64,000 bases of DNA. Source: Isurus oxyrinchus (lineage: Eukaryota). The translations under genes were made by a program, and so were the position numbers. This document shows positions 13,693 to 62,785 of this stretch, piece by piece (the first letter of the stretch is position 1; each line of letters starts with the position of its first letter). The DNA is taken from NCBI GenBank assembly GCA_026770705.1, contig JANJGN010000002.1, forward strand, positions 175,956,001 through 176,020,000, in the 5' to 3' direction. The notes under the pieces were generated by a model that did not search any database, had not been told where the DNA came from, and worked only from the letters and a program-made list of their open reading frames with translations.

Positions 13693-16001
13693 ACATGTTG
13701 GGTTCTGTTTAATTTTAGCAGTTTAGTCTTGCACTATTAGTTATGCAAGAGCTCCACAGTCAAATATGCGAAATGTCATCTACATTCAAATATTAGACAT
13801 CGTTCGACAACCCTTCAATTACAATTAAAGCCTTATGTGAATCTGTTAAAAGGGTTAGTTGCGTATTTAAACGTAACTAAAATCAAAGTGCAAAACATAA
13901 AAATGTCACTAAAGTATATTCGTTAACCTTACGAGAACTGACCAACCTTCTAATTTTTTTGAGAAGTAGTCTAGTTTTATATCTATAAATGAATCATTTC
14001 TTTGCCTTTGGCATCATCTTAAATACAGTCTGGAGCTGCTGATACATGTGGCAAAGAATAGATAGCGCACTTAGTTCACAAAGGGTTAACCACCACCAAC
14101 TCCCCACATCAACACACCCCCCCCCCCCCCCCCCCCCGCCTTTCCCAAACTTCCAAGAAAGAAAGCAATCTGCTGAGGTCCCTTAATACTGCCTGTCCCT
14201 TGTCTCTGAAGTGCTTTGTGGTACTTTTCAGTAACATCGATGTTCGATATGTCTTAAGATATATAGAACAGAAATGTTGGGTGGATTTCACAGATACCTC
14301 ATGAAATTCAATCTATGGAAACAACTCAAATGCTGTGAATTTCCAATTTCAGTGAAATGTTAATGACTATCAAGCATTTACTTAACAGTCACTATAAATG
14401 TTTTCTTTTAAATACAGCTTTGAATTGATTAAAACATTTAAGGGCATCAGAAGATTTCTTTCGTTCTGCTGTTTATACCAGATGCATTTCGAACCTAGTT
14501 CACATTAAAAAAATACTTTTGGACTTCGGTTTTCTTTAAAGATTCCCTTGTTTCTCACAATTTATAATTTCATGTTTTCCCAGTATTAGAAAATAAAAAA
14601 TGTAATTCTAACCAAAGCAGCACGAGATCATTTCAACTTGTCAGGGCCTCATTGAAGCAGAATCTACTAATTTAGCCCAGTTCTGATCTAAAATCGTTCT
14701 GTAAAGGAGTGATAAAATTAGCCCGCATAGGCGCAGAAGACGAGACATTTGTCTCCTTTATAATGCATTTATCGCTCTGTTTTCTAATTGTGCAGCAACT
14801 TTATATCGGTATGATTGGCCGTTTCAAAGAATAAAATATAATGTTAGTTGATTTAAATTTTGATGGCGATTCTGGCAATGATTTGATTTGGATATTTGCA
14901 TCTGCGTTCATCATCGGTCCGAATTTCATCTTGGAAAACCGGTTCTAAGCTTCTTAAAGAGAAGAAATGTTTAAAATCGCAGAATTTGCAAAATGCTGTA
15001 ATTATAGAAGTTTACGGAACTGTTTAAAAATTAACAATTGGACTTTGAAATCGATACTGAAATCGCTTTCTATTCCTCAAAATAGCTTGGGGTTATTAAT
15101 AATGTCATTCGGTTGAGTCTATTTCCACATGTTCCTCACATTGAGGAAAATGTACTTACACGTGCACATATTTTACCTGCTGTCTGAGTTTGATTTCTGT
15201 GCCTTTGAATTTAACAGGAAATGGGGTAAGAATGAACTGATCTGCTCCAAACGGACGTAAACTGTTGATTTTCCTGGTGGAGCTGACTCAGTGTAAATGG
15301 TGCTATCATAACCATTGTAAATGGTCTACAGTACATGGGAACCCCATGCAACAAAATTAAACCCATTCCTCTGGACAACATTCTCGGGCAGTAAATGAAA
15401 TTGCAGTCAGATGGTAAAGATTGAAAAGTATCTCTTATTCTCTGCGCACAAATAAAGCGATAAACTAGCAACAGGTTGCTGCGCTGAGAGGGGTTGTGCA
15501 GGCTGGATATCCAACTTTGATATCGCCGCCCCTCGCTACACTTTTTGAATTGTTTTAACACCTTGGCGTAAACTTTACCACCCGAACAAGCTCAATAAAA
15601 CTCCCAGGACAAAACAAAAGTAGTACTTCCGGCCAATTCCCCTCACTTTGTAAGATACCAGAGCCACAAAACAAAGCTGAGGGCATCAAGCCATTTACGG
15701 CTGGAGGCAACTGTGTTCGTGGTCATTCTGTTGAAACCGTCCAAGGGGCAGCATGTTCGTTACTACCCGCAGTGTGGGGTATATGAACTTTCATCCATAT
15801 ATACCACATTGGTTAAAGTCTCTTTTTGCCTAAGCTTGTACGAAAAGCTGTCTTTTCCCCATCAAAGCAAGTAAAACAGACAATATTTAATCGCTCTGGG
15901 ATTCCCTAATGCAAGTCTATAAAAATAAATATTGATATAAATATTTAAAACGTTTGAATCGCTAATAATACCCAAGTAATTAGATGAATTCCGCCTCTTA
16001 C

Positions 16002-16136
16002 CCTTGTTTGCCAGAATGCCGTCTATACTGTGTTTGGTCTTTTTATCTCCCTCTTCATATTCCTTTCTTTCACAGTCATCCTCTTCGTCCTCTTTCTTTC
16101 CGAATCTACTCCTCAGAATACGGCTTATTGAACTCA
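16002..16136 (-). CDS. pax3: Pax3 exon 4, end of paired domain, acidic segment and octapeptide
   Basis: [45 protein letters not shown]; octapeptide HSIDGILA; acceptor AACAAG|TGAGT, donor AAGG|GTAAGA; 135 nt; exons 1-4 sum to 586 nt in one frame. Confidence 0.93.
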
Positions 16137-16745
16137 CTTGTTTGAAAGAAAATGTTTTTTTTAAATCAAACATTTTATTCATTTTAAATACCAGAACAAT
16201 TTTACCTTTGTGCGACAAAACATCAAATAATGTAGGATTCAATCATTGGTTTAGAATTTCGAATAAAGCTGTTCAATTTTATACTTTTCTTGCTACTTTT
16301 TTAAAAAAAATAGAATCAAATTAACGTAGGGTGAACATTACATTTCATAGTCAATATCTTCGGGAAAAGCAGATTCAAATTCCTGCAATGAATTATTTTC
16401 TCTGTGAAATATACAGGATATAATTTCAGTCTGTAGAAGAGTAAATTATTATCACAATGTTACACTGTTTCCTGAGAGTTCTAACATAATAATAGCATTT
16501 CATTTAAGATAGTAATTTTTGAATTCGAGGTACTGAAGTCCGGAACCTACTTGAAATAATTTGTTAACACCATGACGTATTTATGCTTTCTTTATTAGTT
16601 TGTGCAGCTGGACACATTTAACATTTACAGGCAATTCTTGGCTTAGGTGGAACAAGTGTAGTTATTTTTCTATGTTAATGAAATTGTTCCTGGATACCAC
16701 CCCCCCCCCCCCCCAATTCGCGCAAATCATCAATATTGAACCAAC

Positions 16746-16875: not shown

Positions 16876-18396
16876 CTTTTATTAAATGTGTTTTTTGCAA
16901 GAGAGAAAAAAAGGAGGGTTATTTACAACCGTGCTTCATTCCGACCTGCAAACGAACCTGACCTGTGCGTTATTTGCAGTCATATTCGGATATGCAAATT
17001 TGAAATAAGCAACAATGTATTTCCAAGTTCCAATTATTCCCGATATAACGTACTGCTGTTACACTTTCTTATAAAAGTCCTGGAAAAATTCGGTTGCACA
17101 TAAGATCATTTAAAACAAAACTAAAAGCGTGATGAACTTTTCAGATTTAATATGTAATGTGCTTTTTATTTGTCGAAAGTTTCCCTCTCTGAAGCACACA
17201 AAATTGGTTGCTGATCTAGGCTTTTTATTTAATGAAATTGGCTTACAGTGAACGAAAGTCAAATTGGACAAACAAAATCGGGTGCAAACTCTTTACTGAC
17301 TGGGAACTGTAGGTCAGTACTTGAACTTTGCAGACTCTTTATTGAAAAATGTGGTGTAGCTGTAATACAATTTCTGTGTTTAATGGTCTATATTACGATG
17401 ATCGCTGGTCATTATAGCCTGCGTGTTTAATTGCCTGTGACAAAACCATCCACATTACAGATTAAACTGCGAATCAAGTACTAGCGTGCGTTTTTGGCAA
17501 TGTAAACGAGCTTTGTACAATTTTGACTATCCTGCTCAACAGTGGTGAAGCAGTGTTGCCCGACAAGGAAATGCTGAAAGGCATTTAAATTAGCCGAGAT
17601 CCTCTTAATTTCACATGTTCTAATGTAACATTCTCTACCAAAAGGTTAATTAAAATTCCAAGTTTATTACACACAATGAAAATATCAAACAACTTTCACT
17701 AGATATATTTTGCATATCCGAGGAAGATAGACATTAAACTGATGATAATTCTGATATTTAATAAATCCCGTAACTATAATGAACATTACATTTAGTGTTA
17801 TTTGCAACACACAAATTGTGAATCCAATATATAAACACGCTACATCTCTGTAAACTCATCATTTTAATTAACGAATTCTTACACGTATCTTCAATTTTTT
17901 TAAGGATTATGTTGTTAGTTCCTCAAAATGCCTGGCATATTCCCAGTTTCAGATGATCAAATTTTAATACACCTTTCCAATAAAACACGTTGAATAAATG
18001 GAATTGAACGATATGGGCCACAAAATACAGATCTGATAATTATTATGTTCCAATATTTTAATGAATAAAACTCAAATCGTTTGCAATACCTCAACTGTGA
18101 CAAGCATTTGCGAGTATTACACTTGTACGTGTATGCACATATATAGATGGGACACATTCTGCAAATGCAGAATTTGATTTACAGTTTTAAAAAGTGATAC
18201 TACACTCCTCAGGTGGTTTTAGTCGATCTAACTTGCCTGCATTAGAAGTGCCTTTGAAAAGTACAGATAGTAGCACACTTTGTAGGTAAACCATAACAAC
18301 GTCTTTCGTGACGCTGTAGCTTGCATCAACTAAGTTCCAAATCTTAATCTTAATAAAGCAATTTGTGGACTGGCTGAAGACTTTAGTCCGGCTTAC

Positions 18397-18629
18397 CCTC
18401 GGTTTGCTCCCAGTGGCCCCTGGTCTGATAGAGCCCGTCTCCTGGTATCTGCAGAGGATTTTAGAGACACAACCGTGGGAGACCCTGAGCTGCCGAGAGA
18501 TGACACACGGTCTGATGCCGTGATGGGCCATTTCCACTATCTTGTGCCTGATGTGATTTGGCAGAGGCCGGCCATTTATAAAAACTCCTCCGAGCTGGTT
18601 CACTCTCCCTTGACCTAAAGGCGTTGACA
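18397..18629 (-). CDS. pax3: Pax3 exon 2, paired domain N-terminal (PAI) subdomain and linker
   Basis: [78 protein letters not shown]; acceptor AAATAG|TGTCA, donor AGG|GTAAGC; 233 nt, ends phase 0. Confidence 0.95.
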
Positions 18630-19569
18630 CTATTTGCAGTAAAAATGGCAGCATTAATAAACCTGGTCAAACTTAATCTCGCGGATAGAGAAGTGGAGAG
18701 GAAATCAAAAGATATCACATCAATGCTAAGAACACATCAGTCGACACAAGTGTTTATATATTTTACGCCATTCATTTGCAGGAAACATGCTCAAATGAGA
18801 CAGATTCTTGTTCCAGAACTTACCTTTTTTCCCTGCTGTCACTTGACAATAATATTTTAAATCGCACGATAAAGTTTGGACCTAATAGTTTGGAGCTATT
18901 AATTCATTTCTTTTGAATGATTGCTACTCAAGCTCTGTCATTACAATACTTAAATATAAATCAGGTCCCACCCATCACAAACATTTTGTATCAGCAGAAA
19001 AATCCCACAGTTGCCTTAAAATATGCTTTCAATCCCATTTAAAAACAGTTCACGAATCGGGCGCAGCCTCTATTTACAATTAACTGTCTTAGCTCAGGGA
19101 CCGGGCGCCCAGCGTTTTGATAGTGGTCAAGGAGCAACACACAGGACTGTAAAAACAAACTAAAGATATTTGAAACAACAAAGGAGGTTTGTTTCTGATT
19201 GATTTCACAGTTTGTCTCCATCAACTTTAAGGTGAGCCTATTGCATGTCATGCACCAATAAACTGTTGAAACACGGCTGTAGAATCTACTTACTGCATAT
19301 ATTGAACATGATACAGAAACATTTAAAAAAGGCTCTCTCCGGCGTGGGGGTGGGGTGGGGGGGGGGGGGAGACCAAGACAGTTACAGCTACATATCGAAA
19401 TGCATTACTGAGAGAGTGCAAGAACTTATAATGTATCGCCGTTGCCTCGCACAGGAGAGTTAATGTTCTGCGTGTGCGCGTTTTGCGGCTCCTTTTTTTT
19501 CCTCTTTAATGAAGTGCTGGGGTAGAAAACGAAAGTGCGCTCCGTCAGCTAAAGCATGTGCAGGCTCAC

Positions 19570-27818: not shown

Positions 27819-28008
27819 AAAAAAAACAAAAATAAAAATAGCTGGAAAAACTCAGCAGGTCTGGCAGCATCTGCGGAGAGGAACACTGTTAACGTTTCGA
27901 GTCCGTATGACTCTTCAACAGAACTAAGTAAAAATAGAAAAGAGGTGAAATATAAGGGGGGGGCATTTGTGGGACAGGTAGAGCTGGATAGAGGGCCAGT
28001 GATAGGTA
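27819..28008 (-). mobile_element. Short Penelope-like terminal-repeat insertion with hammerhead-like motif
   Basis: CTCAGCAGGTCTGGCAGCATC family; flanked by 10-bp direct repeat GAAATTAGAT (27809-27818 / 28009-28018). Confidence 0.75.
27887..27925 (-). ncRNA. Minimal type I hammerhead-ribozyme-like motif (variant core)
   Basis: AGUU-CUGUUGA-A-GAGUC-AUACG-GACUC-GAAAC-GUU-AAC: stem I GUU/AAC, 5-bp stem II, palindromic AACGUU stem III. Confidence 0.55.
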
Positions 28009-29774
28009 GAAATTAGATGGTAGGCATATCTGTACCAATCAAGAAGCCAGTTTGAAACATAATAAAGGATTTCAAAATTAGGATCTAGTTTGAAAGCAAT
28101 AGTAAATGATTATGCTACTCAGCTGTCTTGAGGTCCTGGATGCGCTTGCTGCACTGTCACCTGGAGGGACCACACACCGGCTGTTGACTTCCTTCGTCCA
28201 CTTCCATCCATGACATCTCCTTGGTGGAGCTTATCTTCCTGCAGCTTCTCAGATTCTCCAGGTAAGAGTGAGAGACCAGGGAAGACACTTCCCCAGGTCG
28301 CCTCTCCATTCCTGCAGTTGCTGCAATTTGAAAAATCCAAGTGCTGCTGCACTTTTCTTAACCATGCTGTGGTCCCTTTAATTAGAAATCATTCCTCTGA
28401 CAGAATGGGTGCATAATTTTGCTTGCCTTTCTTAATCGGTCATGGAGCACAGACGTGTGATGACAATTGTTTTGCTCTGGTAAAGAGCAACTGGGTTCAG
28501 AGATTTGGGTTCAAGACCCAAAAATGGTCCTACCATTGTGGTAGGGGCTCAGGTGAGAAGATTCTGAGGAGCCTGATATGCCAATTACTGCCAGCAGGTG
28601 GCACATGTGCAGTAGGAAAAAAGTTTTTCACACATTCTCGTCTTGGGTTTACTATCAATAATCAATCAGTACGATTTGCCTCTTTGCTAGCCCAATGACA
28701 CAGAGGCAGCAGAAGTGTCCTCACTGCTCCCTCAACTTAAGATCAGATACTATTAAAACTCACTCACTCAAATCCCCTTAATCTTAATTCTCAGCAAAAT
28801 TCAAGGCGTGGAAAATGGTATCTGGACGTTTGTGTTTTGCATGTAGAACAGGCACAAAGCAAATCAATTTAGCAGTGGGATGTCCGGTGCCAAATCTGCA
28901 CAAGCATTTATCCTACTGCTAAATTTGTGGGTGCCTTTTTATAGTCATCCCAGACAGACACCTAAAACGGGCATTTGACTCCTTAAGTATTAAAATTAGG
29001 GAACTAAGGTTTGTTGAAGAAACCTATTAATAAATCAGTCAGTAATGAGTGGGGCAGGGTAAGGCCTACCCTGCTCAGAATTCTTCAGCAGCTTCCACAG
29101 CCACCAACTCCACATATGTTACAAAAAATATTCTTTTAAGAAAAAGCGTCCCATGGAGTTTTTGATCAGATTCCCCCCATAGTGTTTTCCAATCCCTTTC
29201 TCTTTACCTGAGGACTGTTGCTTATGAAGCAGGCAGCCCGACATTGAAGTCTTTGCTCAGATGGGATGTGTGTGAAGGCACAATCAGAGGCAACAGATCG
29301 AGGCAAGTCCATTGAAGAGGCCCAAGAACCTTTTTCCGTTAGTCCTCAGGCCTCTCATTATTTCGAATGTGCTGGTCATGCATGCATCAAGTCTCAGCTC
29401 ACTTAATTTCCAGGCCTAAGTTTCTACCTTTTTTAGCAGTTATATTTTGAAATGTTTTGGTATATACCATTACTATGTCAATGGAATTCCAGTGAAACAA
29501 AAGGTTAGAATTTGTTTGATAGCCTCTACTTTCATCAATGTTCACATAAGACAGACTTTTTTTGTATTTTTGCCTTAAAGTATTATTTTCTTGGGTAAAT
29601 AAAGAATAAAATATTAGTCTGTAATTTATATGTGTGAGCTAAGGATTGTATGCATTTCTGTAATCTATTCTTCCTTATATAAGGAGACTAAAACAGCACA
29701 CAGTACTCCATGGGTAGTCTCACCAGAGCACTATATAATTGCAGCAAGCCTTCCATACTCTTATACAAAAACAT

Positions 29775-33157: not shown

Positions 33158-33935
33158 TCACCCCCACTCCCTACTAAATGCCCCCCTGCCAATAAACTCA
33201 TCATGGGGAGGGAATTAAATTCTGTTATTTTTCAATAGGACAAGGCTTTCTAACAATCACTGTTTTCATACCAGAAGGAGCAAGTCTTCAGCATATGAGG
33301 TAAAGGCAAAAGATTAAACAGGAGCTGGCAGCAAATGGTAGGGAGAAGGGGAATAGAAACTGACCCTCTTCACATAATGAACAGGGAGGAAGTGGGACTG
33401 TTCTTCCATAGGTGTTGCCTATAGGCATAAAGAAACTGGATTCATTTTAAATTTAAGTATCTAGAACTAATCACTTCTATAGTTAGGGAAGCTATTACAG
33501 TTTAAATACAACATGAGGTAGAGACAGAACAATTTTACTGTTTGAATAATACCTTGCCTGCCTTATTTCCTGCGAGAGAAATGTTATGTCTTTAAACTTA
33601 AATGCATCCAGATAAGTGCGCTTTTTAAAAAATAGTCATGTGTAATTTCAAGTAAAAGAATTTCATGTATCACGTCTGACAACATAATTACGGTTCAATA
33701 CACCTAAGGTGTCCAATTATTGAGCGACCCAGGAACCCGTACAACATGGTAGATAGCTTTTTCTTCTACATGATCTCTATGCTCATTAGGATGTATCAAG
33801 CAGAAGAGTAGTTGTTGTTTGCAGACCCAGGAGAGGAACTGCTACAGCCCCTGAGCCTGATTGGTAAATTACAAACATTGAAACTTATCTCATCTCCGGC
33901 AGTTTGGTCCAAATCCTAGTCATCATATTCTCAAC

Positions 33936-34003
33936 CTGCTGAGTTTTTCCAGGTAATTCTGTTTTTGTTTTGGATTTCCAGCATCCGCAGTTTTTTTGTT
34001 TTT
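33936..34003 (+). mobile_element. Very short Penelope-like terminal fragment
   Basis: CTGCTGAGTTTTTCCAGGTAATTCTG...CAGCATCCGCAGTTTTTTTGTTTTT; 11-bp direct repeat ATATTCTCAAC (33925-33935 / 34004-34014). Confidence 0.8.
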
Positions 34004-35164
34004 ATATTCTCAACTTAGTTGTGTACAAATGATTCCTTTGTGTACAAAGCCACATTTAAAGAATTTCCACCAGTGAATTTAATGACTACAGATGAAAGTG
34101 CTCCCATGCCTCACAAACTAAGCTATATATTTAAATGTAATATACATAAAAGCACTGAACAACCTCCAAGTTAAGTTACACACATTGAATTTGTTGGCCT
34201 GTTTTATTTCCTGTTTTTTTTTATAATGTGACAGATGATTGGCCTGTTTCACTTAGATAGATGCTCATTTCTCAGTTCATTTGGATTTACTTACTAATGG
34301 AGGACAAGCACCAAGAATAAACTTTTCCAAATTGTCAGGCTTGCAAATTGAAACAGATGAAGACAATAATCAGAAGTAGAACCAGAGTTGGCAGCAATAG
34401 AGGATTGCAGGAGACTAAGACACCTGGGCTTTATTTTACAAGCCAGATTAATAATGTGCATGGGCTATGAAAGGTCTGAAGGCCATAGTATGGACATATC
34501 CAACCTGTGGAATGATGTTCTCCAGGGATCTTCAACTCTTGACAAACACCTTTCATTAAGTGGTTGGCCTCAAAGATCCAGAAACTCACTTGACCCAAGA
34601 ACCATTTTGGAATGAGAATTGTGCTCCAATTCTGAAACATGAGCTTGACAATTTGCATAAATTAAGATGGCACCTGCTCGGGAGTGGGGGTGAGGGGTAG
34701 GTTTGCAGGGAATGTAACTCTGTTCTGCCACTCTAATGAGATAAAGTTAATTTGGTTGAATCAGCAGTCAAAAGTTGAATCAGCCCATGTTATAAGAAGG
34801 ATGATATCAGTAGGACCAAAATTTCTACTTTAGAGCACCCTCAACCATCCATCCAGACTGAGCACAGCACTGGGGTAAGTTTTGGCTGTTCCCGGTAAGT
34901 GGATACTGGTAGAATGGATTCTGGTGAATGATGGCTTTCCAAAAACCTTACCTCTTATTCAAATACTGGATTTGGGGGCAAAGGGCAGGGCCAAATTTCC
35001 ACTCACCCTGTCACCCAGGAAAAGCTGCCATGATGTGCTTTTTGGGGCAGAGATGTTATGTTGTCACAGCATGCTCCATTCCTTCTTCCAATCTCCCTTC
35101 ACTGACTGGGGCATTTCCTCTGATATACCATAGCCCCTGAGAAGATTCAGGGACAGGAGATATA

Positions 35165-35813
35165 GGCCTGAATTTTTCCTTTGGCCGGCACACCCGATCA
35201 GCAGGCCTGGGGGCGGACAGGAAACGGACCGCTGACCACGATCGGCCCCCAACCCCGATTTCACGCTGGCTGGCCAATTAATGGGGCGGGTAGAGGACGG
35301 GCAATAACCTCATTGCAGACGCGCGTGAGCGCTGCGAGAAAGCTCCCTGAAGGCAGACAGCTGTCTCAAGGAGGTGCAGACTTCCAAACCATCAAATAAA
35401 GGTTTTAAAAGCTGAAAACAAAATGTCCATGCATCATAATCAGGCACCTGAAAACGTGGCTGATAAAAATGCTGCCCACATATATTTGTTTTTATTTTAT
35501 TTAATAACGGAAATCTCATGCCCCACTTGGATGAGGTTTAATGAAAAATGCAAAGGCCGCCTGGCCAATTTGCCCGTCCGCCGACTGTAAGGTTCGACAG
35601 GCCACGAGAAATCGGAGACAATTGTGCAGTTAATGGGCTTAACTGCCCTCGTAATTGTCGGTGGGTATGCTTCAGGTATTTCCTCATGCCCACCGAGCGA
35701 AATATTGCGCGAGTGTGTGATGACATCAGGACACTCGCCCGACGACTTCTGTCGTGATTTTACGCTCGATCGGGCCATGTGCGCGTCTGTCCGTGGGACG
35801 TAGCATTCTGCCT
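35165..35813. mobile_element. MITE / non-autonomous DNA transposon (PIF/Harbinger-like)
   Basis: Imperfect TIRs GGCCTGAATTTT...AGCATTCTGCCT; flanks ATA/ATG; internal similarity to the elements at 37917, 40595 and 42796. Confidence 0.7.
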
Positions 35814-37354: not shown

Positions 37355-38785
37355 AGAAACAATTTATATTTATATAGCATCTTTATTATAATAAATTGTC
37401 CCAAGATGCTTCACAAGAGCAATTTTAAACAAAATCTGACATTGAGCCACATAAGAAGATATTAGATCAGGGAATTAAAAACTTGGTCAATGAGATACTT
37501 TTTAAGGAATATCTTAAAAGGTGATAGAGAGAAAAATACTTAGGGAGATAAATTCCAGAATTTAGGGCCTATACAATCAAAGGTATGGCCATCAATATTG
37601 GAGCAGAGAAAATGGGGTAGCACAAGAACCTAAAATTGGAGAAGTGCAGAGATCTCGGAGAGTTGTAAGGTTGTAGGATGTTACAAAGATTGGAAGAGCA
37701 GAGGCTAAGGAGGAATTTGAAAATAAGGATGAGAAATGTAAAGTTGAAGAATTTCTAGACCTGGAGCCATTGTAGGTCAATGCAGGACCAGAGTGGTGAT
37801 GGATAAATGGTGATGGGTGATGGGACTTGGCATAAGTTAGGACATGGGCAGTAGAGTTTTATATGATCTCACTTTTACAGAAGGTGAATAATGGGAGGCC
37901 AACCAGGAGAGCATTGGGGCAGAATTTTGCCCTTGGCGGGGACGCTCAGTAGGGGTGGACAGGAAGCTGATTAAGGCCCACCCAGCGTGAAACATGAGCG
38001 GCAGCGCTGAGCGCTGCTTATGCGGTGGGGGGTGGGGGAAACAGAGGGGGGAGCGGACCAAGCGTGAACTTCATGCATGCTTGCGAGTGAACGCTTCACA
38101 ATCTCCCTGAGGCACTGAGCTGCCTCAGGGAGATGAAGAGATATTTTTAAAAATAATTTAAAATATAACTCTGTCACATGAGCAGGAACATGTTATTAAT
38201 GAAAAATTAAAGTTTTTATTTTATTTTTATTTGCTCTTGGAAACCTCATCCTGCCCGTGGAAGAGGTTTCCAAAAAAATGCAAAGGCTGCTTAGCTTTTT
38301 CACCTGCCCGTCAACCATTAGGTTGGGCCGGCAGTGAAAATTTTATTTTAATTGATTATTTAATGGTCTTAACAGGCCTTCTAATTGTCGGCAGGTGCGC
38401 TACCGGCTCTGGCACGTGCCCACCGACCCGAACTTTTGTGCAACTGCGCGTTGACGTTGGCACACTTGGCCAATGTCAACGCGTGTCATTTCATGCTTGA
38501 GTGGGTCGGGCCGGCCGCCAAACAAAAATTTCTGCCTTTGGAGTAGTTGAGTATGAATGAGTGTGTCAGCAGCAAATGATCTGACCTGAGGCATAGGAGG
38601 GCAAAGTTACAGAGGTGGAAATAGGCTGTCTTTTTGATGGAGAGGATGTGGTGATAGAAGTTCAATTAAGTGCTAAATAGTTTACCAGCACTGCGAACAG
38701 TCTGGTTCCACCTCAGACAGTGGTCAGGGAGAGGGATGAAGTCAATGGCTAGGGAACAGAACTTGTCCCAGGGACTGAAGACAAT
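37355..38785 (-). mobile_element. Decayed L2 LINE 3' part, interrupted by a MITE
   Basis: Reverse-complement similarity to 3430-4275 and colinear similarity to 54250-54915 on both sides of the MITE. Confidence 0.75.
37917..38537. mobile_element. MITE (PIF/Harbinger-like)
   Basis: TIRs GGGCAGAATTTT...AAAATTTCTGCCT; 3-bp TSD TTG (37914-37916 / 38538-38540) splitting L2 sequence GAGCATTG|GAGTAG. Confidence 0.8.
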
Positions 38786-40594
38786 ACCAAATCAGCATTC
38801 TCACCTTGCTCAGCTTGATGCTCACTTGAAATCAGTTTATCCTGATAATGGCAAAAAAACTAACCATACTTATTGGTTTAAAACTGTGTTATCATGTCTG
38901 GCAATGGATTATTTTATGCTGGAGTGATTGAAACCACACTTTTGACTGACCTTTCAATGTTATATGTAATTAGCTGCTCACATTTTTCCTCATCAATGAC
39001 TTGCATGAAAAACGCGTCCCGCTGACATTGAAGAAAAAAGCAATGGAACGACTTTGATAATAAGCTAAACCTGAACTTAGTTTTTAAATCATATTTTACT
39101 GAATTGGATCCAGCTTAGCAATCATCTGGTCGGTTTCTGGAGTAACAGTTTCAACTGAATCCAAAATTAGCTCTATAACACCAGGTTGCCTTCCTCAGAT
39201 GTGACTGGGCAGTTATTGTGGTTGACATAGGCAGAAAGTGCCATGTTAAAGTCATGTTCGTTTTAGTACCCAGACAGACCTAAATTATGTCAATTCCTGT
39301 TGAAAATAATTGATTCATGACATTTTATCTATTTATCATCAACATTCAAATATCAAATTATTGTCAATACCTGTGAGAATCTTTGGTTGCATTGTCTTTA
39401 ACTTCTGGTTAACTTTAATGGAATGTTTTCATTTCTTTATCTTTTATACCCTTTGGTCTTGATAATTAATGATACCAGTAAAATGAATGTGGATACTGGC
39501 TCCAAATAACTTGAGATGTGCTTTTAGTAAATTGTATAATCTGTATTGAAAGATACTCAGTAAGCAATTAAAATGATTCAGTTAATGAGAATCAGTTCAA
39601 TGGTGCAACTGTTACATTTTATCAGCTTCATGAATCTTGCTTGCCCTCCCCCGGTTTTAAATGATATATTGATCTACAGGGAAAGAGAAAGGAAGAAGCA
39701 GGTAGAATTCAAAGGTTCCAATAATCAATATGCATCTGACAGGTGCATTTCCGTTTGTCTAAGGCTCTGTAAACTAATGTATAATTTAACACATAATAGT
39801 AGCAGTCTTTCATTTGAAATGAAAGAATTTCCCATGGCAATATTTCATCAAACTCAAACTAGACACTACAATGAGGCAAGAAGAAACTTTTAGGATCGCA
39901 ATATATCAGAATCACTTTTACTTTTATTATTATTCATTGGCAAAATAATATTTCCTACTCACAGTGCTAACTACTTTTGAGCAGACCCAGGAATGGTGTA
40001 TTCAGTGTGTTTAAGATAGGCATTACACAAGGATTTGAAACTTGGACTCCTTGAATGTCAATAATGATTTTTATAATGAAAATAGCACTTGCAGATAGAG
40101 TTCAAATCCAAGTTGTGCTAGAAAATGCTGTAGGCTTGTGCACAAAATAGATATGCAGCAGAGTAATTTAAACCACAAGGACAGGCATTCTATACAAAAA
40201 TATTCCATTAAACAGACATTTCCATTTGGTTGCTCATATCTCCTGGCAGCAGCCATTGATTTCCATGTGGAGAGTATCACAGGATGAATTCGTAACCAAA
40301 AGATAAAGATCACTGATCAACTGTATAGGATTGTACTAGAAATAGAAATTGCTTTAAAAAATCTGTAATATGGTGTGTGTGAGATAGTGAGGTATGTTTT
40401 AATTTGAGCCACCCAGTGTAAATGAGCCAGCTGTAGTGCACTAGAATACCTATTCAATAATTAGCTCTCTGTTTTCGCTAGCATTCCTGCTGCTGCTATC
40501 CTGAAAGTGGCCTACCACAGGACATTTGAGGGCCCTGGCTTGTTTGAACAATAGGCCCTTTTAATAAGGAGATTGGGGCTTCAGGACACACATG

Positions 40595-41249
40595 GGACAG
40601 AATTTTTCCCTCATCGGGCAGGGGCGTGCCCAACCCGAACGGGAGAAAAATAGTGTGTGATGACATCGGGCAAGAGTCTCGATGTCATCGTGCACTCACA
40701 ATATTTCGGTCAGCGGGTGCACACAAGAGGCAGCAGCGCACCTCCCGACAATTAAGAGGCCTATTAAGGCCCTTAATGAATTAACTGAATTGAATTTTTC
40801 GCCGCCTGTCCAACCTTACGGTTGGTGGGTGGGAGAATAGGCCAAGCAGCCCCTGCATTTTTCACCTTATCCACGGGAGGGATGAGGTTTTGACCATTGA
40901 TTTTTTAAAAATGAAAACTTTAAAAATTCATTTGTAACATGTCCATGCTCACGTGACAGAGTCACATGAGGGGACATGTTTTCCTTAATTTTATCATCTT
41001 TATTTGTAAAGTTAAAAATCTTCAGCTCCCTGAGGCAGCTCTGCACTTTCAGGGAGCTTTCAGTGAGCACACCCATGCTCTTGTGCTGACTTCCACGCTC
41101 GCCCTCCACCCAGGCAGCACTGAGCATTTCAGCGCGCGATTCAGACTGGCTGGCTGTTAATTGGCCAGCCAGCGTGAAATTGTGATTGGGGCCCAATTGC
41201 AGGCAACAATCAGTTTCGCAGCCCACCCAACAGGGTAACAATCCTGCCC
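40595..41249. mobile_element. MITE (PIF/Harbinger-like)
   Basis: TIRs GGACAGAATTTT...AACAATCCTGCCC; 3-bp TSD ATG (40592-40594 / 41250-41252). Confidence 0.8.
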
Positions 41250-42795: not shown

Positions 42796-43438
42796 GGGCA
42801 GGGAGCAGCCGTGAAACCAACCTTGCCTGCGATCGGTCCCCGACCATGATTTCACGCTTGCTGGCCAATTACAGCCAGCCAGTCTGAATCGTGCACTGCA
42901 AAGCTCAGCGCTGCCTGGGTGGAGGGGAGGAGAGCGAGGGCGAAAGTCAGCGCATGCTTGCAGAAGTGCTCACTCAAAGCTCCCCGAAGGCACAGAGCTG
43001 CCTCAGGGAGTTGAAGATTTTTAACCTAACAAATAAAGATGGTAAAATTAAGGAAAACATGCCCCCTCATGTGACACTGTCATTTGAGTAGGGACATGTA
43101 AAAAAATTAGTCTTAAAAGTTTTTATTTTTTTAATCAATGGTCGAAACCTCATCCCTCCTGTGGATGAGGTTTCGCCAAAAAGGCAAAAGCCACTTGGCC
43201 TATTCGCTCACCCATAAGGTTGGACAGACAGTGAACAACTCAGTTCAATTAATTGATTAAAGGCCTTAATAGGCCTCTTAATTGTCAGTGGGCACGCTGC
43301 CACCTCTCGCGCATGCCCACCGACTGAAATATCACACGAGTGCACGATAACGTCAGAACTCGCCCAACATCATTGCTGACTATTTTTCTCCCGTTCAGGT
43401 CAGGCATGCACCAGCCCAACAAGGGAAACATTCTGCCC
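42796..43438. mobile_element. MITE, same subfamily as 40595-41249 but inverted
   Basis: Ends GGGCAGG...AAACATTCTGCCC; 3-bp TSD CAA (42793-42795 / 43439-43441); the ORF track shows the shared peptide QSCLRELKIFN on opposite strands. Confidence 0.8.
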
Positions 43439-45969
43439 CAATCCTGGATTACCCATGATGAATACCAGGGGTCATTTACTCATCTAGTACACAGAAATCA
43501 CTGTTATTTAGCTACATAATCATACAGACCCATTAATGTACAAGCGTACAAAAACATTTTCCTCAATATGTTTACATATGTAATATTTTACCTGGTTTCT
43601 AAAATGGGTAATGCATTCTCTGTGAGCTTCACATCTATCTTTGATATCCATAGCACCTTTCTTAAAAAAAACATACTGCCATTGCAAGGGATGTTGGCTT
43701 CTGACATTTTTCTGCACAGTTTACTAAGCTCCTGGCAACACCAGCACTCCCAATCACTGGGCATGCCACCAGACAATGAGTATTGGTGCCAGGCTTTATT
43801 TCCCAGCCATGTAACTGCTGATTCTGGAATCTCATTCTCACTTGCACTTTTCTTCTGAAATTACTGGATGATCAATCTACAGGTCGCTTAGTAATAGTTC
43901 AAAATCAAATACTTCTCGGTAGGATCTTTGGAAGAGAAAAAAAAAACAAAAATAGTGAATTATATTTTCCAAAAGTTATTTGTTTGAAAAGAAAATACAG
44001 CCAGAAATCAAAGCTTCCCCATTGGTCTAATGGGTAAAGGAGTTTCCTGATATCGCACTACTCCACAGAGAACCCCCAGTAGACCCAGGAATTGATTGCT
44101 GTTTGGGATGTGTCAGTCCTCTCAGTTAGGGTGATATAATTGACTGCTTTCCTGATTGCTATCAAATGACTCCTACTGGAAAATTCATTTGCATGGATGT
44201 CAGGTGATCATTTGGTGGGGTGCAGTCTTTCAATGATCACTGTTTGGCCTCAAATGTGGAAAAAGAAGAATACCTGTTTCATTGTGTCCCAACAGGAGTA
44301 GATGCCATCTGAGTCAATGGGAGGGGGAGAAGAAATCTATTTATGCACCATAGAATTATTGAATGTATTTAAATTTAACATGAAATCAATCATGTCAACA
44401 GCAGACTTTTTTGCAGGGGAAGAAATATAATCAAAAAAGTTATTAATAAAAAGGCTAACCTTACACAAAAGAAACGAACAATAATCAGAAGGATTAATTT
44501 ACTAAATACCAAATAAAAGAAAATTCTAGTGAAGGATCCCAACTGAAATATTAACCTATCTTTCAGATGCTAACCAAACAACATTCACTTTAATAAAGCT
44601 ATTTTTTTACTTTTAATCCCAGTTCCCTGACTGCTCTGCTCTGGATTATAAGAATGTTGCGGTTCAGAGACCCTTTTCCCAGGCTTCAGTGGGTGCTGTT
44701 CAGCAGGGATCAGTCCTTCCCAATAACAGCAGCCAATTAGTGTTTTAAGGACATTAAGGATATATGAATTCACGGATCTGTATAATGTCAGCAAAGACAG
44801 CTCATAAAATGCTAATCCACAGCTTCAGGACTGTTGACACATCAAGGCTATATTACATGTGCAAACTGGGCAAACCCAATCAGCAAAAGGGAGTTGAATT
44901 AACCGGGGCAGGAATTGCATTCCATAACAGGCAGGAGCTTCACTTAACTATTAAAACATAGTGTATTACTTCCTGGTGTGAGGAAAGTATCCATTTATAA
45001 TTATGCCCATTAGAAATGAGTATCCAAGGGCACAGATAACAGTAAAAATACAAAGTTCATCTAAAGGAGATGATGGTAAGGTAAGTGTATTCTCATAATT
45101 TCTTGACTGTTTTACTACTGATTTCTTAAGTGCCTGCACTGGCACTTTTTTTTTCCACAGGCCTTTCCATCAATGGTTCTTCTAATCATTTCTAATCCTG
45201 CTGGATTTCCCAATTGAAATCTCCTTCTTAGTTTTCTCTCTACCTAAGCACAAGTTAAATCTGGAATAATGCCTTAAATATATTCATAACTATCTTGTGA
45301 TTTTGCAACAGTGTCGTCACTCCATTGTTGAATGGTATACTAATGTTATTTGAATTATTACCAAAGGATTAGAGGTGGATCATTACAGTGATTTCACAGG
45401 TAGGTCTAATATACAGTGAAGATCATTGTAAATAATTTTTTTGCTGTTTTAGAATACACACACTTGAAGCATATTTAGATAAAAATTTAAAATATCATTG
45501 AAAATTCAGGAAAGCAGTCATAAACAACTGGTTAAAAAAATTGAAAGATGTATTTCAATAATGGTTATAAGGAGAAGATGGGAAAAAACAGCTGATACAA
45601 TGGGGTTGATTTTAATCCTACCCAGTTACAGAAATCCATTCATTGATAATTAAGTACCCAGATTGCTTACCCAGACAAGAGGCACTGGGACAAGATGATT
45701 CCCAGTTTTCACCTGCTCAGGTGAGCAGACAAAAGCGGCAATTGTCCAAAGCCAAAAGTGTCCTTTTAAACACATGGATTTTGGATCATAACAATGTCAT
45801 CAGCCAATTTTAATTCGGCAGTTTGATTAAGAAACTGCAGTGAGTTTCCCACCAAGACAGCATAGGAGCAGATTACAGGCAGAATAGACTCTAAAAAGGA
45901 CTTAAAAAAAAAACAATGTCCATGTTAAGGACAAGAGGTGCACCTAAACCTTTCCTGCTGCAGACTTGC

Positions 45970-47572
45970 AGCCCTCCTTCCCACCTTTCTCCTTCCCTCC
46001 TACCTTCCCCTCCCCTCCACTATCTTCCCCCCCCACCCCTCCCCTCCCCACATGTTTCCCACCACCACTCCCCTCCCACCATCTTCCCCTCCCCTTCCCT
46101 CCCCTCTCATATTTCCCTCCTCTCTTCCCCTCCCCATCTTCCCCCATCTTCCCATGCCCCCAAAGCTTCCCTTGCCCCCCAGCTCCCCCTCGCACCCCAG
46201 CTTCTCCTCACCTCCCCAGCTTCCCCTTGCCCCTCCCCTATATTCCCCCTCCCATCACCTCCCCTCCCATCTTCTACTCACCTCCCCTATCTTCCCCTCT
46301 CCTCCCCTCTCCTCAGCTCTTCCCCTCCCCTCTTCCCCTCCCCTCCCCATTTCCCCACCCAACTTCCCCTCCCCTTCCCTCTTCCCTTCCAGTGATCCCT
46401 TCCCCTCCAATCTTCCCTTCCTCTTCAATATTCTGCTTCTCTTCTCCCTCCCCTTCTATTTTCCCCTCCTGTCTCCTCCCACCTTCTCCTCCCCTCCGTT
46501 CCACACCCTACCCTCTTCCCCTCCCCTTCCCCACCTCTCCCCTCCTTTCATCCCTTCCCTCCCCCTCTTCCCTTCCCTTCCAATTGCTTCCCATCTTCCC
46601 TTCCCCTCTTCCCATCACTTCCCCTCTTTGCTTCGCTTGCCCTCTTCCTTTCCCTTCCCCCTTCACCTCCTTACTTCACCCCCCACTCCCCTCTCCACTT
46701 CCCTGCCCCTTCCCCTCGCCTCTCATCCCCTCTGCTGCTCCCCTCACCTCTGCTCCCATCTTCACCTCGACTCCCTTCTTCCACTCATCTCCCCTCCCTT
46801 CTTCCTCTCCAATCTTCCATTCCTCTTCTCCCCTCCCCTCCATGCCTCTTCTCCCCTCCCCTGTATTCCCATCTTTTCCTCCCCTCCCCATCTCCTTCCC
46901 CTCCAATCTTCACTTCCACTCCAATCTTCCCTTCTCCTCCAATCCTTATTTCCACCCCAATCTTCCATTCCTGTTCTCTCCTCCCCTCCCCTCTTCCCCT
47001 CTCATATTCCCCTCCACTCCAATCTTCTCTTCCCCTCCAATTTTCCCCCCTCCAATCTTCCCTGCCCCTCCAAACTTCTCATCCCTTCCAATGTTTTGCT
47101 TCTCTTCTCCCCTACCTCTCCTCCTCTGCTCCCCTATTCCCTTTCCTTCCCCACTTCCCTTCTCTTCCTCTCTTCCCTTCCCTTCCCTACACCCCCTCCC
47201 CACTTCCCCTCCTCACTTGCCCTCCCCACTTCCCTTCCCCTCACTTCCCCCCCATCTTCATCTCCATTCCCTTCTTCCACTCAACTCCCCTCCCTGCTTC
47301 ACCTCCAATCTTCCCTTCTCCACCAATCTTCTGCTCATCTTCCCCCTCCCTTCTTCCCCTCCCCTCCCCTCCCCTTTCTCTTCCAATCTTCAGCTCCTCT
47401 TCCCCATCCCTGTCCCCATCTTCCCCTCCTCTCCCATCTTCCCCTCCCCTCCCCTCCCATCTTCTCCCTCTCCCATCTTCCCCTCCCCCATCTTCCCCTC
47501 CCCTCTCCTCCATTTACCCCCCTACCCTCCCCTCCCATCTTCCCCCCTCCTCCCACCTCCCATCTTCCCCAT
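45970..47572. repeat. ~1.6 kb low-complexity polypyrimidine tract (CCCCTCCC / ATCTTCCCC-type degenerate units)
   Basis: Plus strand almost entirely C/T with scattered A; gives spurious P/S/L/F-rich ORFs. Confidence 0.95.
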
Positions 47573-47619
47573 TAAAACTAGTCAGGATATAAAGGCTTTC
47601 ATCTCAACGTTCTAAATTT

Positions 47620-49025: not shown

Positions 49026-49143
49026 GAAACTATTTACACAAAATATAATGCTATGCATCATTATGTAGGTCTTCAATTTCCTCATCATCATTTAACCGAA
49101 TTAAGGAACCTATCTGTACATAAAGTAGGCAACTGAAGATGTT

Positions 49144-49280
49144 AAAGACAAAACAAAACTGCGGATGCTGGAAATCCAAAACAAAAACAGAATTACCTGG
49201 AAAAACTCAGCAGGTCTGGCAGCATCGGCGGAGAAGAAAAGAGTTGACGTTTCGAGTCTTCATGACCCTTCGACAGAACT
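49144..49280 (-). mobile_element. Young short Penelope-like insertion with hammerhead-like motif
   Basis: Near-identical to the copies at 49931, 60039 and 33936; direct repeat AACTGAAGATGTT (49131-49143 / 49277-49289). Confidence 0.8.
49242..49280 (-). ncRNA. Minimal type I hammerhead-ribozyme-like motif (variant core CUGUCGA)
   Basis: AGUU-CUGUCGA-A-GGGUC-AUGAA-GACUC-GAAAC-GUC-AACU: stem I AGUU/AACU, stem II GGGUC/GACUC, palindromic ACGU stem III, GUC cleavage triplet. Confidence 0.6.
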
Positions 49281-49930
49281 GAAGATGTTCTTTGTTACTG
49301 GTTATGAAGGGAAGTTACTACATGACACAGGAAAAGTGACTTTATTACATCAGAGATGTTGCGTTCTGATTTCAATGTTTTTGGAATTCGTCAGGTTCAA
49401 CTTTCATTTTGGGTTTGACCTTTCAGCAACGTGGTGTCCATGGAGTTTAACATGTATCCTACTTGCATATTATTAAATGAACTCTAGGTGGCACCCTGTT
49501 GGGAGTAAGCACATTGTAGCAATTACACTACAAGATCTCTCTTGTATTGATTTTGTAATTTCTTGGCAGGGCTTTTCTGGAGCCCCTGGAAATAAAATCA
49601 TGTTGTAATTACCAAACCAGTTTATGCTCGTTCAGACATAACAAGATTTAATCCTATTCCGATGTCTGATTTATTAAACAGTATCCAATAGGTACTCGCT
49701 GTATATAGGTCCCTGGCCTCTTGCTTTTTATCATTCCACTACTAAAATATGGGATTGTGATATTCCTTTAAGAATTTATAAAGTTTTTTTTCCGGAAAAG
49801 GAATATATTTAATAGAAAATAAAATAGTCCAAAGGGATCCACTGAAATGCAAATTGTTGCCTTTAACCTATGAGTAAATTGTTTGCTCGTACGGGAGTAA
49901 AAACGTATCCAACAAACAGCATATGTTTGA

Positions 49931-50052
49931 TAAAAACAAAAAAAAACTGCGGATGCTGGAAATCCAAAAGACAAACAGAATTACCTGGAAAAACTCAGCA
50001 GGTCTGGCAGCATCGGCGGAGAAGAAAAGAGTTGACGTTTCGAGTCCTCATG
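49931..50052 (-). mobile_element. Young short Penelope-like insertion
   Basis: Same family; direct repeat CATATGTTTGA (49920-49930 / 50062-50072) with a short filler before the right copy. Confidence 0.78.
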
Positions 50053-59708: not shown

Positions 59709-60843
59709 TGTTTTGACCAAATGAGAAGGAGTGAACTGGCTCCCCTCTATTCAACCTCCTCAGTTGGTCACAACAAAGGTTTAAGACGTTTTCTCACAAG
59801 GATATGCCTTTTCAAATCAGAATGTATTTACTTATTTAAGCTGTGAGCAATAAGGAGCCAATCAAACAAGGTTTTCTTGGGTCAAAGCAGGAATTTATTA
59901 ACACTAAACCTGAAAAAAAACAATAAAAACATGACGTCAAGCATTCAGCCATCATGCAGCCATTCAGGCCTACACACACGCACAAGTAGCAGAAATGAGG
60001 GGAGCTAGAGTCCAAAAGAAAAAGGTAAAAGAACATACAAAAACAAAAACAGAATTACCTGGAAAAACTCAGCAGGTCTGGCAGCATCGGCGGAGAAGAA
60101 AAGAGTTGACGTTTCGAGTCCTCACGACCCTTCGAGGACTCGAAACGTCAACTCTTTTCTTCTCCGCCGATGCTGCCAGACCTGCTGAGTTTTTCCAGGT
60201 AATTCTGTTTTTGTTTTTGTTTTGGATTTCCAGCATCCACAGTTTTTTTGTTTTTATATATATGTAAAAGAACATACGTTCCCTTTGATTGTCCTTGAGG
60301 CGTAGATTTTAAATGCTGTGGCCAATTTGGTTAGCTGTTTTTTGGATGCGGTTAGATGTAGAAGATGTTACAATTATTACGAGATCTCGGTGCACTGGTA
60401 AATTTCTGGTGCAGTTGATTTTTAGAACTGGGTGGCATGTTTATTCCAAGAGAGAGAGAAGGAGAGAGACCAGCCCTGAGCCTGTTTCCTCTGCAGAAGA
60501 CTTTCTTAACACCACCTCTGTCACTTGCAATCTCTCTTAAGTGGCTGAGAAGCCTTGCCTTGAAACACTTCACCCATTGTGAATTTCCATGAGCAGCCAT
60601 TGTTTCAAGATCCAATATTTTGCATTTTTAAAGTCTCTTCCTTAGACAGTTACGAGTTTTGGTGGGCATTTGGATTATAGGAATTGTCTCTCTCTTCTCA
60701 CTCTTCTGAAGGTGATTTCTTTGTTTCTCATCTTTAACTTGGAATATAGTTTGCTCTGTCTCAGTTCAAATTGCAAAATTTCCAGTCAGTTGAAAGTTGA
60801 ACAATCATATCTTCAAAAAATAAAGGGGCATAGCCTTGTGACA
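59709..60843 (-). mobile_element. Solo LTR (probably Gypsy/Metaviridae type)
   Basis: Starts TGTTTTGA, ends TTGTGACA (TG...CA); 4-bp TSD AGAT (59705-59708 / 60844-60847); AATAAA on the minus strand about 190 bp from the left end (orientation tentative). Confidence 0.75.
60039..60263. mobile_element. Palindromic (inverted-dimer) Penelope-like insertion nested in the solo LTR
   Basis: Perfect arms 60037-60123 / 60134-60220 with a 10-nt loop; 14-bp direct repeat GTAAAAGAACATAC (60025-60038 / 60264-60277). Confidence 0.88.
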
Positions 60844-61164
60844 AGATTTACTAATATATTTGATTGCTAAATCTTAATGACTAACTAAGGAATTTATTAT
60901 GTTTTTGTGTTGAATGGATGCTCAGTTCATCTTCAATCTTTTTGGTATTATCACAAGTTTCCAAACTAAATTGAAGGTAAATAGCATACTCAGACTAAGA
61001 ATTAGTGTTGTAGATATTGTTTGAATGTTTATTTTGAATTAGTTAATGCCTCTGCTAACATGCTGACAAAACATGGGAGATGTTATGGAGATATGGTAAA
61101 TATCCATTTGCTAATATTGCTGAAAGTAATTAATAAACAGTTGCTTGGTAGTATGGAATTTAAA

Positions 61165-62215
61165 TATTGCTGAAAAGAGAGACATGCTGCTGAAGATTTT
61201 TGTCTTGCACTCATTAGGACAAACCCAAAAATGCCAAATTTCAAATGATCGTAACAGTTTATACTACAGGAGAAAAAGTGCTGATTGGTTGGCAGGTTGA
61301 CACTGATTGGCTCGGGTATTGCCATGATGAAAGCAATGGGAAGCTATAAACTCCCCAAACTTCATGATAATTCAAAAAAGGCATAAGGCTTGAACATACT
61401 CCATTTGTTTGCAGAGAACAGGTCCCTGCATATGAATGTATATTGCTTCTAGAAAGCACAAATGAGCCATGTTATGAGCTTATCTTAAATTGATCATTTG
61501 TGCAGCTATTAACCCACTCAGGATTGTTCAGAAAGTGCTCCCCAATTGCAGAATTACATCTAACAGTAGACATTTTGTTTTGGGTTTTCCGCGTGTGGGC
61601 TGGTTGAATACAGTCTGCGCTCTGCCTATTACGAACAACCAAAGGAACATGCTGTTTGATTCAATCAGCCAGTCTCTGGGACAGAGGGCCTGTGTACCTG
61701 GCATCACATTGGCACTGAAATTCATACATGACATTACTCAATTGTATGGTAGACAGAATGTCTTTCTGGACTGAAAGCAGCATCCTGTTAGTGGAAAATA
61801 TCTCTCACGTAGCCATTGCATAGTAGCAGCATGGAACAGCTTCCTTAACCTTTTGGTCAAATTATTGAGATGCTTAATTTGAGGTAGACCAGACTTTCAG
61901 GTCTGAAAGTGATGGCCTTTGGCATTTGTGAGTATCTGTGATTCACAGTGAACAATGACCTGATTAGAAAAGCTTTGATGCACTCTATTTTTGCATCAAG
62001 CTTGCAAGATGGGCAAATGGCTAGGGCCCTATTTACAAGATTGCTGATAAGGCCAATCTTATGGCACATGGAGCTACCTGAATCCCAACATGTATACTGA
62101 CTGGTGAAGGTAGACAGTAATAGCGAACCCATCTGCAGATTTCTCAACTAGCAATTTGAGGAAAGGGAACACATTCGAACTCCATCTCAAAAGTGAATTT
62201 GAACATGGCTTGGCG
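61165..62215 (-). mobile_element. Penelope-like retroelement remnant: RT C-terminus, GIY-YIG and 3' terminal repeat
   Basis: KFTFEME..PFLKLLVEKSADGF..TFTSQYTCWDS..KIGLISNLVNRALAIC; then SNVMYEF.QCQCDARYTG.LSQRLAD*IKQHVP; decayed hammerhead CTAATGAGTGCAAGACAAAA near 61195-61220. Confidence 0.85.
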
Positions 62216-62221
62216 TGTATT

Positions 62222-62785
62222 ATATTCTGTCTAAAATACAATTGAGCAATGTTATGTATGAATTTCAGTGCTGGTGCAATGCCAGGTACATAGGCCATAT
62301 GTCTCAGTGGTTGGCTGATTGAAACAAACAGCATGTTCCTTCAATTGTTCATAATAGGCAGAATACAGACCGCATTCAACCAGCCCATGTTTGCAAAACC
62401 CAAAACAAAACATTTACTGTTAGATATGATTCTGCGAGTAGGCAGCACTTGCTGAACAATCCTGAGTGTGTTCATAGCTACAACCAACTTAACATAACCA
62501 GTCACTTGCATTTGCTATAAGCAACATACATTCATATATAGTGCCCCATTCTCTGCTGACAAAAGGCACATGTTCGAGCCTTGAACCTTTTTTGAATTAC
62601 CCAGGAGCTTCGGGCATTTACAGTCCCCCACTGCTTTTTCCATGGCCATGCCTCAGCCAATCAGTGCCCTTTTCTCACTGCATAAATTGTTGTGATCATT
62701 TGAAATTTGGCATTCTTGCATTTGTCCTGATGAGTGCAAGACAAAAAGTTTCAGCAACATATCTCTCTTTTCAGCAATATTCAAG
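62222..62785 (+). mobile_element. Inverted 5'-truncated second copy of the same Penelope-like element
   Basis: SNVMYEFQCWCNARYIGHMSQWLAD*NKQHVP at ~62245-62340; reverse complement of ~61165-61765; CTGATGA-GT-GCAAG-AC-AAAA hammerhead remnant at 62727-62750. Confidence 0.85.

Follow-up and report, generated by a model that had tools for sequence, protein, structure and literature searches.

The 64,000-nucleotide stretch of the Isurus oxyrinchus genome analysed here, referred to as the window, contains two minus-strand segments that read as minimal type I hammerhead ribozymes, except that both have a U at core position 6 in place of the canonical A. This raises the question of whether two copies decayed independently or whether the substitution is the state of a whole family, and of what a motif with such a core does. 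The original prediction had read both motifs from the letters and linked them to Penelope-like elements (PLEs); direct reads agree with its description, and both the motif layout and the placement in a pseudo-LTR agree with the assignment. The features of the motif are as follows, with copy 1 denoting the one at 49.2 kb.

49242..49280, minus strand: minimal type I hammerhead motif of the youngest subfamily (U6, C7, C17), read directly and from family counts
49280-49277, minus strand: stem I 5′ arm of copy 1, direct read
49276, minus strand: C3 of copy 1, direct read
49273, minus strand: core position 6 of copy 1, U replacing the canonical A, direct read and lineage consensus
49268-49264/49258-49254, minus strand: stem II of copy 1, direct read
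49253-49250, minus strand: G12-A15.1 of copy 1, direct read
49246, minus strand: C17 of copy 1, direct read
49245-49242, minus strand: stem I 3′ arm of copy 1, direct read
49245..49246, minus strand: predicted cleavage site after C17, placed by hammerhead numbering
27887..27925, minus strand: the same motif in the oldest U6 subfamily (U6, U7, U17, A-U pair at 10.2), direct read

The motif at 49242..49280 makes up the first 39 bases of a short insertion and its stem III is a palindromic remnant of two bases, while the copy at 27925-27887 has three stem I pairs only. The family has the stem I, the stem II with G10.1-C11.1, the extra base after A9, the palindromic 15.2-16.2 and the NUH triplet of the minimal hammerhead, but the core consensus CUGANGA is found only in its older subfamilies. 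Folding prediction gave a probability of ~0.99 for stem II and of ~0.4 for stem I. The folding energy of the isolated 39-mers was not better than that of shuffles (z −0.04 and −1.18), and the hammerhead dimer fold was absent from the thermodynamic dimer minimum, a method that is uninformative for motifs this weak. An Rfam search of the window up to E=10 returned no hammerhead family match, in line with the earlier expectation that standard covariance models may miss the motif; the Rfam matches at the palindrome, e.g. mir-3202 on the inverted pair at 60037..60259, are false. A PDB sequence search gave 0 matches.

We counted the letters at core position 6 across the 4.98-Gb genome by exact matching, in which old copies are under-represented. 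A 30-letter family pattern had 101,901 exact matches, with 0 for the reversed control. When stem II was left free, 106,973 matches had U6, 10,380 had A6 and 3,548 had C6 or G6 (controls 82, 65 and 62, respectively), with U6 making up 88% of the total of 120,901; the motif type at 27887..27925 had 2,356 exact matches. U6 is the family consensus, and these counts rule out the independent decay of two copies, so that the proposed persistence of A6U as a family state holds in a genome-wide comparison of CUGUNGA with CUGANGA. Core variants were counted genome-wide at positions 4, 5 and 6. Among the copies listed for one flank type, C6 made up 43 of 100 (hand count; L201-L220), and with one flank variant it was present in 8 of the 8 listed. 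The double variant U4G+U6 was seen in 70 of the 100 matches listed from a total of 413, corresponding to ~290 dispersed copies (L221-L250). Because U4G+U6 copies share one common flank and the variant is found on both arms of inversions, it was present in the source RNA. The 972 variants at G5, with transitions in ~72 of 100 as in the background spectrum, look like ordinary post-insertion mutation. The family is also present in assembled contigs from public sequencing runs of three organisms.

The two window motifs are the minimal hammerheads that an autonomous Penelope-like retrotransposon carries in its pseudo-LTR. At one genome locus (L063), an uninterrupted 918-aa frame with reverse transcriptase (RT) and GIY-YIG domains lies between two U6 motifs, and at another, head-to-tail tandem units of 3,353 and 3,340 bp are found. 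The protein matched RVT_1 (E 3e-6) and GIY-YIG (E 2e-4), both slightly below the Pfam cut-offs, and the nearest atlas protein clusters carry RVT_1, HTH_animal and GIY-YIG (0.98). In the translation, the GIY-YIG motif is preceded by a cysteine linker C-X4-C-X2-C, which we take to be the exact spacing of the Neptune/Nematis linker. The motif lies ~400 bases past the stop codon and ~170 ahead of the next start codon, that is, in the pseudo-LTR. As in EN+ PLEs, a single ORF encodes RT and then GIY-YIG, and tandem pseudo-LTRs, inverted 5′-truncated copies and the optional tail of 30-40 bases are present, the latter with two end sites ~35 bases apart. A Zn-finger-like cysteine linker between RT and EN marks Neptune/Nematis PLEs (passages of PMC8557442), and PLE pseudo-LTRs are known to house minimal hammerheads (passages of PMC4209133).

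The window contains, besides the two motif copies, three further remnants of the same repeat. The features that accompany copy 1 and these remnants are listed below.

49144..49241, minus strand: leader and tail 3′ of the motif, ending at the distal tail site, from the window read and genome copies
49277..49289, minus strand: upstream copy of a 13-base target-site duplication, read by eye
49131..49143, minus strand: downstream copy of the target-site duplication, read by eye
49928..50052, minus strand: young copy truncated within stem II, from repeat comparison
60037..60259, no strand assigned: head-to-head inverted pair of young copies with the joint inside the motif, from repeat comparison
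33934..34007, plus strand: tail-only copy without the motif, from repeat comparison

With a length of 137 bases, the insertion at 49280-49144 starts on the first base of stem I, and the last four bases of the upstream target-site duplication (49277..49289) coincide with the stem I 5′ arm. In full-length copies, the leader continues to the ORF start, ~170 bases past C3. Copy ends in the public sequencing runs also fall on two tail sites. The 27.9-kb copy (about 27820-28020, upstream limit by eye) retains part of the 3′ UTR upstream of the motif.

Grouping of 147 fetched copies by their flanking letters yielded a succession that runs from the A6 groups A, B and B2 to the U6 groups C, D, E, F, F2 and G; the subfamily consensuses rest on 3-37 copies each, several chosen by core pattern. 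Consensuses of the ORF were built from 55 of 62 ORF-reaching copies, the other 7 being misgrouped, intermediate or duplicate. Between these consensuses, dS was 0.08 from B to C and 0.15 from C to G, the oldest and youngest U6 groups, with a dN of 0.027 over 366 codons for the latter pair. Copies diverged from their own consensus by 4.7% in the A6 group B (3 copies), 4.0% in C (14 copies), 1.6% in F (9 copies) and 1.3% in G (14 copies). A6 marks the older subfamilies and U6 is found in all younger ones. The succession, the ORF divergence and the low divergence of the youngest group together indicate that U6 apparently arose once, in an element that stayed coding, and that the youngest and largest wave carries it. 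Because flanks and ORF distances give one succession, two independent subfamilies that each retained U6 are ruled out: the 27.9-kb copy is of type C and the 49.2-kb copy of type G, so the two subfamilies postulated in the original prediction exist, but as successive stages of one U6 lineage. Its view of a recently mobile family is supported by the youngest divergence and by the intact 918-aa frame, which make the family both young and autonomous. In the youngest subfamily (L063:6565-6583 and others), the segment made up of the stem II 3′ strand and the bases that follow it has been nearly duplicated just upstream of the motif, a gain that could provide an alternative partner of the stem II 5′ strand or be a duplicated DNA site.

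We compared where copies start with the predicted cut, counting as starts those copies in which three mismatched letters are followed by 28 matched ones. In total, 5,804 starts fell on the first base of stem I, 58 eight bases upstream of stem I and 240 at the predicted cut, with 114 and 68 starts three bases and one base before the cut, respectively, and 109 one base after it; 83,585 copies read through the cut. Starts at the stem I edge were ~20 times commoner than those at the cut site. On inspection, 23 of 30 fetched stem I-edge loci were true starts, mostly inversions, and of 67 incidentally fetched copies, a set that is not fully unbiased, 17 started between −15 and +2 of C3 and 0 at the cut. 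Contigs of the public runs break or rejoin at the stem I edge, too. For the A6 ancestor, we counted 867 starts at stem I, 204 at the cut and 35 one base on. The start counts show that templates were overwhelmingly uncut and had a common 5′ end at stem I, which would most simply be a transcription start. Because the A6 ancestor has the same start pattern, copy ends do not show that A6U altered the cleavage rate.

A strong cleavage footprint was not found in the genome-wide copy-start counts. The excess of cut-site starts in U6 copies was two- to threefold over neighbouring bases, and 30 cut-site loci examined by eye included 7 short internal deletions, 5 inversions joined through stem I and 4 clean direct starts; this excess is partly due to microhomology. 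The raw proportions of cut-site starts were 204/4,744 for A6 and 240/83,585 for U6, and ~21 of 30 fetched A6 loci were later deletions or point changes as judged by eye. The modest excess, seen with A6 as well as with U6, may stem from traces of cleavage or from microhomology.

Other origins of the stem I-edge starts were considered as well. A structural block of the reverse transcriptase at this edge is unlikely because such a block is expected elsewhere, namely at the 3′ foot of the stem. An extra G from cap copying was not enriched (12 of 100 among the matches listed). Splicing was rejected because the starts include AG, direct copies lack a common upstream exon and the contigs contain no splice joint. 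In older subfamilies, the 25 bases upstream of stem I do hold a pyrimidine run whose final AG lies at the edge, resembling a 3′ splice site, and a donor-like junction lies ~80 bases past C3; the intron of D. virilis Penelope ends in a comparable pyrimidine run and AG (passages of PMC4209133). Template jumps landing on the first bases of stem I (L015/L016, run X19) were also observed, among them 127-base head-to-tail joins of motif and tail (three contigs).

From C to G, the motif changed at N7, at two loop bases, in stem II (A-U to G·U) and at position 17 (U17 to C17). All five changes are at sites that hammerheads tolerate (P about 0.004 for random changes), while the absence of changes in the 12 core sites is not significant alone (P 0.165). 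With regard to the claim that the stems are kept, the changes do spare pairing, but covariation is weak, since the lineage consensuses contain a single one-sided stem II change and none that is two-sided and compensatory. The best reading of these substitutions is that the motif would still be constrained in the long term, although C6 and U4G+U6 side lineages also spread, which speaks against strict constraint. Because a ~35-base block directly downstream is as conserved as the motif, the constraint is not necessarily related to a ribozyme.

Constraint could instead act on the DNA if an initiator-like start and, downstream of it, elements of an internal promoter overlap with the motif, with the ribozyme left as a relic. 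Copy starts that mark the stem I edge in both A6 and U6 families fit such an arrangement, as do the conserved downstream block and the D. virilis Penelope promoter, described in passages of PMC2377424 as internal and TATA-less with downstream elements. We nevertheless regard a purely DNA-level constraint as quite unlikely, because the sole stem change keeps pairing and the others hit the loop, N7 and N17, a distribution that an RNA fold explains without extra assumptions.

The fold might also be catalytically dead since A6U and be kept as a 5′-leader hairpin or as a protein-binding fold that serves RT/EN recognition, translation or RNA stability. The uncut templates and the mobility of the U4G+U6 lineage are consistent with a dead fold, and Naiad PLEs thrive without hammerheads (passages of PMC8557442). 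In folds predicted for older U6 copies, U6 permits the core to pair with the GAAAC/stem I side, but C7 in the youngest group breaks this U6-dependent pairing again. Moreover, the unpaired core letters are fixed on the main lineage: the non-stem changes avoided the eight unpaired core sites in 4/4 cases, with P about 0.04 if only stems mattered (hand calculation, 70/1820). The change from U17 to C17 is a shift to a better cleavage triplet, and there is the faint excess of starts at the cut. A dead fold is thus a doubtful explanation in our view, though one that deserves to be weighed.

To the reading that we prefer we give roughly an even chance: the motif would be the 5′ end of the element RNA and a weakened ribozyme, the cutting of which would be dispensable for each jump. 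Transcription from the pseudo-LTR would begin on the first base of stem I, and the RT would prime internally at one of the two tail sites, ~100 and 135 bases downstream. Where the RT runs off the uncut 5′ end, short and inverted (head-to-head) copies would result, whereas priming in the downstream pseudo-LTR would yield long ones. Cleavage would strip a 35-base leader, presumably capped; A6U would slow it, and a low activity, probably assisted by dimerization or protein, would keep the remaining core sites constrained over the long term. For the anole PLE, internal priming has been shown in vitro, where hammerhead mutants still insert normally and cleavage needs protein (passages of PMC11167929). 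A natural A6C hammerhead is slow in Mg (PMC7151607; PMC3088659), and every CUGA single mutant was low in activity in a mutational scan (PMC9901934); the passages of these three papers used here contain no A6U rate.

Full activity of a non-canonical ribozyme would require that position 6 is free in a dimer or protein-bound form and that the element depends on cleavage at a different step of its cycle. Source lineages saw two substitutions at position 6 (A to U and U to C), whereas no other core site changed on the main lineage. Because uncut templates dominate even with canonical motifs, as in the A6 ancestor and in passages of PMC11167929, uncut templates would not measure activity on this argument. 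However, position-6 changes are strongly deleterious in the tested hammerheads covered by passages of PMC7151607, PMC3088659 and PMC9901934, minimal hammerheads of PLEs have weak activity even when A6 is present (passages of PMC4209133), no compensating change is visible and the predicted dimer minimum differs from the hammerhead fold, so we hold full activity to be decidedly improbable. The original alternative of an active dimeric ribozyme or a structure without catalysis is therefore shifted on both sides: full activity is disfavoured by the low published CUGA mutants, the uncut templates and the spread of U4G+U6, and structure alone is mildly disfavoured by the fixed core letters. That the motif marks the likely 5′ end of the RNA goes beyond the original prediction.

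A more far-reaching idea, to which we assign a low probability, is that the hammerhead would act as a tunable decapping switch exactly at the transcription start, removing the capped 35-base leader. Position 6 would be the dial, turned down from A to U and then, in a side branch, from U to C, which would raise the pool of intact, translatable and copyable RNA and drive the expansion to >100,000 copies, with trace protein-assisted cleavage under selection.

The motif works like, and descends from, the PLE minimal hammerhead, but fails its core consensus. As described in passages of Cervera and De la Pena 2014 (PMC4209133), minimal hammerheads of metazoan PLE pseudo-LTRs share with the shark family the position, the short stem I, the extra base after A9, G10.1-C11.1, the palindromic 15.2-16.2, the NUH triplet and the occurrence as mostly single truncated copies and inverted pairs. 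The representative alignment rows examined in supplement file 2 of that paper all have A6, in contrast to U6 in the shark family; its reported core variant is U3-A8, and it gives up to ~9,000 copies per genome compared with ~107,000 here. The natural A6C hammerhead of phage Bcep176 (passages of PMC3088659 and PMC7151607) is substituted at the same core position, and the shark family has a C6 side lineage, too. The Bcep176 case is one phage motif for which slow cleavage, favoured by Mn, was measured, whereas the shark A6U is fixed in a minimal motif of an amplifying animal retrotransposon. In the published literature searched, we found no natural A6U hammerhead; Lunse et al. 2017, which was outside the scope of this search, may list such variants, and the papers in which 'A6U' and 'hammerhead' occur together deal with other RNAs, judging by title.

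The Poseidon PLE of Anolis carolinensis (Frangieh et al. 2024, passages of PMC11167929) resembles the shark element in its RT and GIY-YIG frame, tandem pseudo-LTRs, two tail end sites and copying of uncut RNA. The Poseidon motif has a canonical core and overlaps the start codon, whereas the shark motif precedes the ORF by ~170 bases and lies at the likely 5′ end of the RNA; the shark protein has a Neptune/Nematis-type cysteine linker. Non-LTR retrozymes (passages of PMC7229834 and bioRxiv 10.64898/2026.07.22.740005) are likewise PLE-related type I hammerheads in short non-coding repeats, but they form tandem arrays and are thought to pass through cleaved circular RNA, whereas the short shark copies are dispersed or inverted, have target-site duplications and start upstream of the cut. 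A non-LTR retrozyme was rejected because the window copies are single or inverted, tandem units are full coding elements and short head-to-tail joins are rare.

Earlier work has seen the PLE hammerhead as a signal for processing, as a late step assisted by protein or simply as a passenger (passages of PMC4209133, PMC11167929 and PMC8557442). A single genome here holds a dated series from canonical A6 to U6, with C6 and U4G side branches, together with intact autonomous copies, so that natural alleles allow a direct test of PLE hammerhead function. Strict descriptor searches reject a core with which a lineage can be massively successful, and vertebrate hammerhead counts are therefore underestimates. 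Genomic copies alone, moreover, locate the likely 5′ end of the RNA.

The window has further features apart from this family. Another dispersed repeat is present in direct and inverted orientation at 35221-35697, 38105-38427, 40593-41217 and 42823-43440, and a long imperfect inverted repeat with arms 74-88% complementary spans 61160-62784. At 45965-47615, a C/T-rich low-complexity repeat of ~1.6 kb yields spurious long open frames. The minus-strand segments 15862-16242 and 18187-18666 are, as we assume from their translation, Pax3/7-type exons for the paired domain and the octapeptide region, respectively, and the hammerhead copies sit 8-40 kb upstream of this Pax3/7-type gene.
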